Sequence record: NC_023693.1
Length of the DNA: 64,000 nt
From: Escherichia phage phi92
Strand: one strand, 5' to 3'
The position numbers and the translations under genes are program-made. The notes below the pieces were generated by a model. That model was not told the origin of the DNA. It ran no database searches and worked only from the letters and a program-made list of their open reading frames with translations. Of the stretch, positions 55,739 through 62,463 are shown in pieces. The stretch's first letter is position 1, and the number at the start of each line of letters is the position of its first letter.

Positions 55739-56017
55739 CATTATGTTCAAAGTGGCTCGCAAGGCCACTCCCGCACCATTACGTGCTGCTGCATGTCACC
55801 ATGCAGATCAGACTATATCTTCATGCTTAAAGCATGTCTACCATTTGGGGTGTCATAGGCTTACACCCTACGCTGCTACATTCATCACAGCTAGTCGTTA
55901 GGCATTTCGTAACAGTACCCCCTTCTTCTGTGTTGGGAGTTCTGTTACGTTTAGCACGGGATTGTCTCGTTGAGAGTTCCCCCGTTTAGGCAGATTTTAC
56001 ATGAGCAGTTATAGTTT
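55739..56017 (-). ncRNA. group I self-splicing intron (ORF-less) interrupting nrdD
   Basis: 279 nt with no ORF separating two in-frame nrdD halves; exon 1 ends in U and the intron ends in G; paired elements present (ACGACTA/TAGTC P7-like, CTGCATG-GTGA-CATGCAG hairpin with GNRA loop, CATGC-TTTAA-GCATG hairpin); resembles my recollection of the T4 nrdD (sunY) intron core. Confidence 0.65.
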
Positions 56018-56875
56018 ACCCATGCTTGTGACGCGACCATCTGAAGATCCTGTAACTTCTTTGTTTAAAGGTACAGAGATAAAATCAGGATAAATGCGTT
56101 CAGCACAACACTCCATTGCCAGTTGCTTCAAATCATAGTTTGGATCGCCAGCTTTCATGTTAACACCATCTTCCAAGAAGAAGATAACTTTAGGAAACAC
56201 AGGAGTTACCCTATCTTTTCCTAATCCTTGTTTGTGCACCATTAGGTAGTTTTTAGTGATCATTCTACCAAAAGCAGAGGTATCCAAACCTAAACTAATT
56301 GTTATAAAAGGTGACTGACCATTTACACTCATTAGAGTGTTCACCTGGTAGATTAAAGTTTGCATTGCATCATAGACCTGTTTATCTACCATACGCATAG
56401 CAATATCATAATCGCCAACATCGGCATATATTTTATTAAAACTTGCTTTAACGTATTGACTAAGCCCAGTATCAACATGTGCACAAGTTTGTCCACCATA
56501 TTGGCTAGAAGCTACTGCTTGAATAATTTGAGTTAGGACAGTAGTCGCTACACCGATAGATTTTGGTTTTTCAATATGTGCATTACCAATACGGAAACCG
56601 TTCTCAAGCATATCTTGGTAATTTACCAGGCAACAATTAGTTAAAGGTGAGAGTAAATAATCTAAATCGTGAATGTGACCATACCCACTTTTATGCCATT
56701 CTGCCAGATCTTCCGGTAAAATATGGGTCATTGCCATGTGCTTGCTTAGGATACCTGCTAGTAAATCTCGGTGAGTATTAACAATCATTGCAGGTTTGTT
56801 TGCATTTTCACGAGTAAATTCTTCGGATGTTTGTTCGAGGAATCCGATTACATCCTCATATAGTTTTTGGGTCAT
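56018..56875 (-). CDS. nrdD: anaerobic ribonucleoside-triphosphate reductase, exon 1
   Basis: N-terminal NrdD-like sequence (RDLLAGILSKH, HIHDLDY, TNCCLV, IEKPKSIGVAT); the ORF track runs two codons (KL) into the intron before the stop. Confidence 0.7.
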
Positions 56876-59210: not shown

Positions 59211-61985
59211 TTAGTTTACCAGTTTATTTATATCGGGTAAAAGATTTATTTCACCTAAAAAATCACCTTCACCTTCCTCTAACCAACTCTCATATGCTTG
59301 TGCATGATTATAGTTACCATCAAAAGAATCTGCAACAAATTTTTCTACAGTTTTTCGAGATGTGCCAGCGCCAAATACACCAAGTTTAATACCATTGATC
59401 GGTAAAGTGGTGCTTGTTGGTACTTTCTCTGTTGCAACACGGTTGATATCTATAATCTCCTGTACGGTTGTGTTCCATTGTAAGCATTTAACACAACGGG
59501 TATGCGCTACATACAGTAGGTTTCGCTCTGCCTCTTCCAGTCCTACCCATTCACCAGTCTTTTTATCATAGTTGGAAGGAAAATCATTAGCAACAATAAC
59601 CTGATCCCACTCCAAACCTTTAGACTTGTGTGCTGTAGTCAGTGTGACTTTTGCTGTAGGAGAATTTCTATGCGTTCTAAGTGTATGTGCTATAGTGTTC
59701 GCCTTACCAGAAACTACGATGTTTAACAAGCGTTTAGCATCTGGATCAGCCTCTGCACACTCAACAAATTCATTCCAATCTGCGTAAGGTAATACAGTTT
59801 CATGTTTTACTTTCTCAATATCTCCTCTCCGAAGAGCATTAACACTATCTACCATAGAGATAAAATCCCTGGTATCTACGTTAATAATAATTTCTTCCCC
59901 ATTTGCAATACGATCCATTGCCTCCATAAGCAAGGTTAAATTCTTGCGAAAGATGATAGTGTAAGGTTTTGTATAGTCTACAACATCTGATTTGTAGCTA
60001 CCTACTACAGTATCAAAGCCTTTACCAACCAAAGGATGACGCAAAGGTTCTTTATCGCTTAAAATCATATTGGCAATGTTTGCCACTTTGGGGCCAAAAC
60101 GGAAGCAAGCAGTTAATGGAAGCTCTGCCCCATACTTAGCTGTTTCAATCATCATATTAGAGCTACCTCTAAATTGATAAATGCAGTTGTGGCTAAGAAT
60201 TTCATTGCCAAAGAAGTTAGCAGTATCCTCTACTTCAATATCATAATAGATACCCTCACTATCTACAATGTCCACAATCTCTTCTGCCGTTACAGTATCA
60301 CCATCTTTTACCAACACAGACATGCCTTTAAACAAACCCGCTGCCGGAATTAAGTTATATTTGGCAGTGTCTACAGAGGACATGCATTCTTTTAAAGATG
60401 CAAACGGAACTATTTCAAGGATCTTTTGTGCAAAACTCAATGCTTCACGATAAGAATTGAAATACTTACGTACACGGTAACGACCTTCCAATTTAGCAAC
60501 ACTTACGCTTACACCTGCTTTAATGAGTGAAGCATAGATCGGCATTTCACTTTCTGTCCACTCAAAACTGACTTGTGTTCCTTTACAACCTTGTGCTCGC
60601 AAAGTCACTGTTAACATTTTTCTTTCATCTACTGCACAATTGATGCTGTGCCAATGTGGATAAGCAAAATGATAGTCTTTATCCTCTAAAAGTTTAAAAC
60701 CATTCTGTCCGAATTGTTCAAAGATGTTATTGATCCTTTCTTGATTAATGCCGCGTGAACTTGCTTCAAATACACAAGTAGGAATGCCATATTGTAAACT
60801 GTATGCCATTTCTTTTTCCATAGCAGCTTCGCGATTTTCAACAATGTCCAACACCCATAATTTCTGTGCTTTTTCAGAACGTGTACGTTGCCCCAGTTTA
60901 GAAAAACCTTCTTTATCATCGAATTTGTTAGTGATCCCTACTCGGAAACCTAAATCTTTCCTCCACATTAGGTATACCACCATCTGGTCATCTTTCAGAA
61001 CATAGGATGAAGCCCAAATACGATGGTTATGTGTCATATCTAAAGTTTTACCTGTAGCAGTAATAATATTCCTACCTTTTGTACGTGTAGATAAAGTTTT
61101 ATTTGTTACTTTTCTAAATGTAACTTTACCATTAGAATAAGACTCTACCTTATCACCGATTTGCAGGTCTTTCATTGTAACCTGACCATTCTCGGTGTTA
61201 AGTACCGTGTTTTCCGACACACATTGGAATTCATCGCCCACTACCACAATTTGTTTTGCAGATTTAGCATTTCGCAGAATAGACAAGAATGCAGGGTTAA
61301 CATCCTGGAATTCATCACCAAAAATAATATCATAACCAAGATCAGCACCAGACAATTCAAACAATTTTACATAGGTGTCATGCGTCATCAAAGTATCTGT
61401 ATTAGGATCAATGCGCTCTCGCCACAATTGTTTTGCATACTTAACTACTTCTGTAATTAGTTTGTGTTCGTTAATACCTTTTCTTTTAATATCTGCAAGA
61501 TGTACACTAGGAAAATGTTTACGGCTGATAAAAGGATCATCCGAAAATTCAAACTTACCTACGGTTTGCTTGATCATTAAACCGATCATAGCACGAGTTA
61601 AAAGTGTTTTCCCTCGTTTATCAATAAGATTATTAATCTTAAATTTCTTTGCTATCTCGCTACCTGTACCTGCAACGTTAACATACTGTCCTTCTGGTCG
61701 TGACAGTTTTGCACGTAAACGATGATCCAGGAATTGATAGCAAATAGAATGCAATGTACGGCATTCTACATTTAGTGGCATCTTACGTCGTGCTTCTTCT
61801 GCCATGCTTTTATTGAAAGCTAAGTAAAGAATGCGATCTTCTGTACTGTTAGCCAGCAAATAAAGTGTTGACGTTTTGCCTGATCCAGATTTAGCTTGGA
61901 TAGTTAAAAAGCGATGGTCTGGAAAAGCCTCCTTAATAGCTGTTTGCTCTTCTGTTGGAGTGAAGCTCAAATCTTTCTTAGCCAT
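59211..61985 (-). CDS. SF1 DNA helicase (UvrD/Rep-like), intein-containing
   Basis: Walker A AKSGSGKT, motif II IFGDEFQD; motif III split as VVGDEFQ / CIYQFRGS by a 346 aa insertion; start taken at ATG 61985 (MAKKD...) next to the upstream stop (the ORF track starts at 62024). Confidence 0.65.
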   Translation of the reverse strand: MAKKDLSFTPTEEQTAIKEAFPDHRFLTIQAKSGSGKTSTLYLLANSTEDRILYLAFNKSMAEEARRKMPLNVECRTLHSICYQFLDHRLRAKLSRPEGQYVNVAGTGSEIAKKFKINNLIDKRGKTLLTRAMIGLMIKQTVGKFEFSDDPFISRKHFPSVHLADIKRKGINEHKLITEVVKYAKQLWRERIDPNTDTLMTHDTYVKLFELSGADLGYDIIFGDEFQDVNPAFLSILRNAKSAKQIVVVGDEFQCVSENTVLNTENGQVTMKDLQIGDKVESYSNGKVTFRKVTNKTLSTRTKGRNIITATGKTLDMTHNHRIWASSYVLKDDQMVVYLMWRKDLGFRVGITNKFDDKEGFSKLGQRTRSEKAQKLWVLDIVENREAAMEKEMAYSLQYGIPTCVFEASSRGINQERINNIFEQFGQNGFKLLEDKDYHFAYPHWHSINCAVDERKMLTVTLRAQGCKGTQVSFEWTESEMPIYASLIKAGVSVSVAKLEGRYRVRKYFNSYREALSFAQKILEIVPFASLKECMSSVDTAKYNLIPAAGLFKGMSVLVKDGDTVTAEEIVDIVDSEGIYYDIEVEDTANFFGNEILSHNCIYQFRGSSNMMIETAKYGAELPLTACFRFGPKVANIANMILSDKEPLRHPLVGKGFDTVVGSYKSDVVDYTKPYTIIFRKNLTLLMEAMDRIANGEEIIINVDTRDFISMVDSVNALRRGDIEKVKHETVLPYADWNEFVECAEADPDAKRLLNIVVSGKANTIAHTLRTHRNSPTAKVTLTTAHKSKGLEWDQVIVANDFPSNYDKKTGEWVGLEEAERNLLYVAHTRCVKCLQWNTTVQEIIDINRVATEKVPTSTTLPINGIKLGVFGAGTSRKTVEKFVADSFDGNYNHAQAYESWLEEGEGDFLGEINLLPDINKLVN
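60186..61223 (-). mobile_element. intein (aa 268-613 of the helicase ORF)
   Basis: Begins with Cys (CVSENTVL), TxxH block (DMTHNHRIW), ends ...ILSHN with +1 Cys (CIYQFRG); it sits inside helicase motif III, which excision would restore. Confidence 0.65.
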
Positions 61986-61986
61986 T

Positions 61987-62463
61987 TCAACCTCTCTTAA
62001 TTTGTTTAACAAGCATAGGAACAAAATCTCGTTTTAAAATTTGTTCAATAATATGATCAGGTAGCTGTTGGAAATTATAATTAAAAGCTACTGTCTCACC
62101 TTTAGGTGTTTCTACCCGCACATATAACATGTTACGAAGTTTATCCACTTGTGCTGTATATTCTAAACCATGTAATTGATGTATTGCAAACATCAAATCG
62201 TCAGTTTCAGTTTGGAATCTATCACTTCCTTGCATCAAGGACAAGGTAAAAGGTAGATTTTCCCTAAGAGCCACCTTCTTAGGCACTAGTGAAGGGAAAT
62301 ACTCCCCAATAACTTCCTGTGTAAGCTGAATACACTCTTTTTCAAGCTGGTTTTGTTCCTTGAGTTCACAAACACTTTTTTGTAAAGTGTTAACCTCTTT
62401 TTGCAAAGCTGCTAGTTGAGCACTTAACTTTCTTTTTTGATTACGACCAAAACGTTTAGACAT
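61987..62463 (-). CDS. hypothetical protein
   Basis: 158 aa basic N-terminus with coiled coil. Confidence 0.4.
   Translation of the reverse strand: MSKRFGRNQKRKLSAQLAALQKEVNTLQKSVCELKEQNQLEKECIQLTQEVIGEYFPSLVPKKVALRENLPFTLSLMQGSDRFQTETDDLMFAIHQLHGLEYTAQVDKLRNMLYVRVETPKGETVAFNYNFQQLPDHIIEQILKRDFVPMLVKQIKRG

Follow-up and report, generated by a model that had tools for sequence, protein, structure and literature searches.

The helicase gene of Escherichia phage phi92 very probably carries a class 1 intein, inserted in frame directly after the glutamine of motif III. We interpret it as a homing element whose middle domain is most likely a nuclease, with an N-terminal lobe that is perhaps, and tentatively, GIY-YIG-like. 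The element lies on the minus strand of the analysed window, a 64,000-nucleotide stretch of DNA (NC_023693.1) from this Justusliebigvirus-type coliphage; the initial annotation gave no strand. The intein as such is known and ordinary, since GenBank already labels it in PaulScherrer (MZ501100), JohannJBalmer (MZ501084) and vB_EcoM_ZYD (PQ110661), and inteins in helicases form an established class. The literature searched yielded neither an analysis of domains or mobility nor experimental work on the annotated intein, and its middle domain (residues ~74–287) looks uncharacterised so far.

The intein is contained in frame within a minus-strand open reading frame (59211–62024). Following the annotation of PaulScherrer, translation begins with the ATG at 61985, which gives a precursor of 924 aa; the limits of the coding sequence match those of PaulScherrer gene bas60_0082. 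The host protein has the features of a UvrD/Rep/PcrA-type SF1 helicase: Walker A, motif II (DExQD), motif III (GDxxQxIYxFRG) and UvrD_C. It exceeds the Pfam cut-offs for UvrD-helicase, AAA_19 and UvrD_C, matches FBH1 (E 1.9e-31) and, as the precursor, matches the PHROG DNA helicase profile phrog_1967 (E 2.7e-162). The gene and its intein are arranged as follows:

59211–61985, minus strand: helicase precursor gene, UvrD/FBH1-like SF1 (924 aa plus stop, ATG at 61985)
61224–61985, minus strand: N-extein, 254 aa (translation; alignment to FBH1 and UvrD)
61872–61895, minus strand: Walker A, AKSGSGKT, in the N-extein
within the N-extein, minus strand: motif II, FGDEFQD
61224–61244, minus strand: first half of motif III, VVGDEFQ, at the end of the N-extein
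60186–61223, minus strand: class 1 intein, 346 aa (Cys1 to His345-Asn346, then Cys+1; absent from EmilieFrey and inny)
61005–61223, minus strand: N-terminal part of the splicing (Hint) domain, residues 1–73, blocks A and B
61221–61223, minus strand: block A nucleophile, Cys1
61023–61034, minus strand: block B, T64-H-N-H67 (T-x-x-H)
60186–60362, minus strand: C-terminal part of the splicing domain, residues 288–346, blocks F and G
60186–60191, minus strand: C-terminal His345-Asn346, with Cys at +1
59211–60185, minus strand: C-extein, 324 aa plus stop, including the UvrD_C domain (translation, Pfam, FBH1/UvrD alignment)
60162–60185, minus strand: second half of motif III, CIYQFRGS, at the start of the C-extein
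60183–60185, minus strand: Cys+1, first residue of the C-extein

Three observations identify the element. Firstly, positions 60186–61223 comprise 346 stop-free codons on the minus strand (CVSENTVLN...MTHNHRIW...GNEILSHN), while the plus strand contains many stops. The flanks are ...QIVVVGDEFQ upstream and CIYQFRGSSN... downstream, placing the insertion point at GDEFQ|CIYQFRGS. Translation thus bears out the initial annotation, which had described a 346 aa element between VVGDEFQ and CIYQFRGS with an initial Cys, a TxxH block and a terminal His-Asn followed by Cys. Secondly, the N- and C-terminal parts together make up a Hint fold, and intein profiles from Pfam and NCBIfam match both ends of the element. 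Pfam Hint scores 29.7 bits (equal to its cut-off), Intein_splicing 33.6 bits (slightly under its gathering score of 35.8), and NCBIfam intein_Cterm exceeds its cut-off; TIGR01443 matches the C-terminus with 20–23 bits (cut-off 15.6). The profile search that the initial annotation had proposed as a check hence favours an intein. A sequence search of the PDB gave weak matches only, all to the C-terminal block. Thirdly, in phages EmilieFrey and inny the helicase gene encodes 578 aa and lacks exactly the 1038 nt of the intein, while the remaining helicase is ~98% identical to that of phi92 (566–567 of 579). Their junction reads ...GGTGACGAATATCAG|AGCATTTACCAG... Given this precise absence, the pattern of intein motifs is not due to chance.

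The same comparison settles a point that the initial annotation had raised against itself, namely that orthologues might carry the same insertion as a structural domain: the close orthologues precisely lack it. The conceptually spliced phi92 junction lines up with motif III of FBH1 (VGDPHQ-QIYTFRG) and UvrD (VVGDPDQ-SIYKFRGA), the UvrD alignment spanning the junction. On all these grounds, the proposed placement of an intein in motif III of a UvrD-like SF1 helicase holds.

Judging from the residues present, protein splicing would begin with translation of the entire 924 aa precursor. A thioester would form at Cys1 and be transferred to Cys+1, cyclisation of Asn346, assisted by His345, would free the intein, and an S-to-N shift would restore motif III and give a helicase of 578 aa.

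The phi92 genome carries further elements of this sort, and the count of two inteins and one group I intron given in the initial annotation is correct. The DNA polymerase gene contains a 245-aa element that is annotated as an intein in PaulScherrer (GenBank), and Rfam identifies the intron:

55789–56063, minus strand: group I intron splitting nrdD (Rfam)

The intein looks mobile, and its distribution suggests that it is visibly spreading between phages: presence is sporadic among close relatives, the intein and its exteins point to conflicting relationships, and the flanks show co-conversion. It is present in 36 of the 125 phage records that have the site and missing from 89. The intein of Phapecoctavirus DIJ07P2 is 99.6% identical to that of phi92 at the nucleotide level, while the exteins are 73.6% (N-extein) and 81.2% (C-extein) identical. 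In 60-nt bins, complete identity extends ~240 nt into the C-extein, and an identity of ~0.9 reaches ~100 nt into the N-extein. Two flanking stretches stand out:

59946–60185, minus strand: downstream co-conversion tract, 100% identical to DIJ07P2 (60-nt-bin profile, junction search)
61224–61250, minus strand: upstream flank carried along with the intein (dense nucleotide differences from intein-free alleles)

The first 51 nt of the downstream tract are distinct from all intein-free alleles, and 26 of the 48 extein differences from EmilieFrey, like 26 of the 42 from inny, fall within −27 to +50 of the insertion point. Over 120 nt, no intein-free site among the 89 exceeds 80% identity to the phi92 spliced junction, so that none of these records holds an intein-free allele with the same flanks as the intein. 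Base composition does not indicate a foreign origin (GC 37.4% in the intein, 37.3% and 38.4% in the exteins). By these sequence comparisons, the intein is transferred between genera together with short flanking stretches of extein. The co-conversion pattern proves recombinational transfer; it does not identify the enzyme that makes the break. During co-infection, an allele lacking the intein would suffer a double-strand break and be repaired from the intein-bearing copy. We infer that the intein itself cleaves DNA, the break-making nuclease most likely being its conserved, two-lobed middle domain:

60744–61004, minus strand: N-lobe, residues 74–160, beta-beta-alpha-beta-alpha, candidate catalytic lobe
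60363–60743, minus strand: C-lobe, residues 161–287, two helices and an alpha/beta sandwich (secondary structure)

The initial annotation had suggested looking here for an endonuclease domain, HNH or other. A middle domain does exist; it is neither HNH nor LAGLIDADG, no recognised homing endonuclease domain of either type being found between blocks B and F, and no nuclease family in Pfam, NCBIfam or PHROG matches it. A word-indexed homologue search with the intein returned two proteins only and missed phage copies that are 98% identical; homologues were recovered instead by profile search and an exhaustive search of representatives. At E<=1e-3, at least 684 protein clusters share the conserved middle domain; most of them are inteins occupying this same motif of the helicase, and motif III inteins account for 94 of 126 fully aligned representatives. 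The N-lobe forms the universally conserved core (Y84, M86, R94, G96, R113, E117, W123, E138, P148). The C-lobe is variable and is missing from the methyltransferase inteins, where the alignment has gaps; it weakly matches eIF1/SUI1, the C-terminal domain of MotA, and TolR, and is probably a DNA-binding or target-recognition module.

The N-lobe tentatively resembles GIY-YIG nucleases, weakly, and Y84, R113 and E138 may be the catalytic residues of a divergent GIY-YIG-like fold. Y84 and R113 never vary and E138 hardly does, and the three are placed colinearly with the GIY-YIG Tyr, Arg and Glu: VVY84 would correspond to GIY, R94-V-G96-I-T98 to YIGxT (Arg94 taking the place of the YIG Tyr), R113 to Arg27 and E138 to Glu75. 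In Pfam, neither PF01541 nor its clan members match the phi92 intein at E<=1, while PF01541 matches 4 of 56 members of the middle-domain family (best E 0.04). Alignment of GIY-YIG with the N-lobe by hhalign gives a weak probability of 6% (P 0.006); against an I-TevI-derived alignment, which is shallow (9 near-identical fragments), the result is negative. Tests with ten GIY-YIG proteins of T4 lend weak support. In the reverse test, the best domain found by the T4 GIY-YIG HMM fell within the N-lobe for 39 of 175 proteins (~23 expected), which is near chance.

One alternative, unlikely though the strongest of those considered, is that the intein can splice but its middle domain is a DNA-binding, regulatory or decayed module and no nuclease. 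Spread would then rely on ordinary phage recombination or a nuclease encoded elsewhere. The lack of significant matches to nuclease families fits this, as does the fact that phages of this group recombine heavily and bear other homing elements (PMC8594841). Against it stand the strong conservation of the domain across those clusters, with its invariant Tyr and Arg and near-invariant Glu, and the contrast between intein and extein identity, with sharp tracts centred on the insertion site. Free-standing relatives also argue against it. Two of these, on metagenome contigs (P0004 and P0002), are separate open reading frames in which the middle domain is preserved along with much of the Hint fold, whereas Cys1 and the terminal Asn are missing; they adjoin uninterrupted UvrD-like helicase genes.

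Somewhat less likely still is that the intein is kept as a conditional splicing switch on helicase activity, and is regulatory rather than purely selfish. Such a role has been proposed for replisome inteins (PMC4760082), and since the insertion falls in a catalytic motif, the precursor must be inactive. However, ~70% of related phages lack the intein, and a recent invasion would account for both its distribution and the co-conversion tracts. Regulation and homing are mutually compatible. We regard it as improbable that the middle domain belongs, in strongly diverged form, to the LAGLIDADG endonucleases usual in inteins: Foldseek returns many meganucleases (I-OnuI, I-PnoMI, I-CreI) at E 0.01–0.3, but the domain cannot be aligned with that of PI-SceI, PI-PfuI or PI-PkoII and lacks any motif or profile match, and this candidate was rejected. 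Finally, a permanent structural domain that is never excised can be dismissed, because sister helicases ~98% identical function without exactly these 1038 nt, the element parts the Gln from the Ile-Tyr of motif III, and it has a full set of splicing residues and a Hint fold.

Returning to the homing intein, it is conceivable, if somewhat short of probable, that its middle domain represents a large undescribed family of intein-borne homing endonucleases: either the first GIY-YIG type fused in frame inside inteins or a new nuclease fold, specialised on SF1 helicase motifs II/III and ParB-type DNA methyltransferases, with free-standing descendants that have lost splicing beside intact helicase genes. 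If so, the phi92 intein would be a ready experimental model, as natural intein-plus and intein-minus phage pairs exist on E. coli K-12. Characterising the domain could extend the nucleases known from inteins beyond LAGLIDADG and HNH, and could yield a compact site-specific enzyme against a highly conserved helicase motif. In well-studied K-12 phages, the system also offers a clear example from nature of intein homing still under way. With PaulScherrer, which has the intein, and EmilieFrey, which lacks it, both in the BASEL collection, homing, co-conversion and immunity of the target site are directly measurable.

Among known systems, the closest is the annotated intein in the UvrD/Rep family helicase precursor of PaulScherrer (bas60_0082), which shares gene, site and 98.6% amino-acid identity and is the same element; its GenBank entry bears the label 'intein' only, with a mat_peptide one codon over-long that takes in Cys+1. 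The 16 bacterial UvrD inteins counted by Novikova et al. 2016 (PMC4760082) likewise lie in ATPase motifs of UvrD-type SF1 helicases; compared by description only, that survey mentions neither motif III nor a non-LAGLIDADG middle domain. PI-SceI, PI-PfuI and PI-PkoII differ in their inserted domain, with which the phi92 middle domain is unalignable; unlike these LAGLIDADG inteins, the phi92 intein has neither the LAGLIDADG motif nor a match to its profile. I-TevI, I-TevII and the T4 Seg proteins share the beta-beta-alpha-beta-alpha order of the N-lobe, and GIY-YIG homing endonucleases, like the middle domain with its candidate catalytic lobe, pair a conserved part with a variable one. In contrast to them, the N-lobe has Arg for the second Tyr, a loop before the Arg helix that is 9 residues longer and no significant profile match, and the middle domain sits in frame within an intein, a setting in which GIY-YIG was not known (Dassa et al. 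2009; PMC2677866). P0004 and P0002 are like free-standing homing endonuclease genes beside their target gene, and like HO of yeast, an intein-derived free-standing nuclease (10.1101/2025.01.02.630785). This likeness belongs to the metagenome relatives, whereas the phi92 element is a complete in-frame intein. Lying next to intact helicase genes, the free-standing relatives suggest a path by which inteins become free-standing homing endonuclease genes, or one in the opposite direction.

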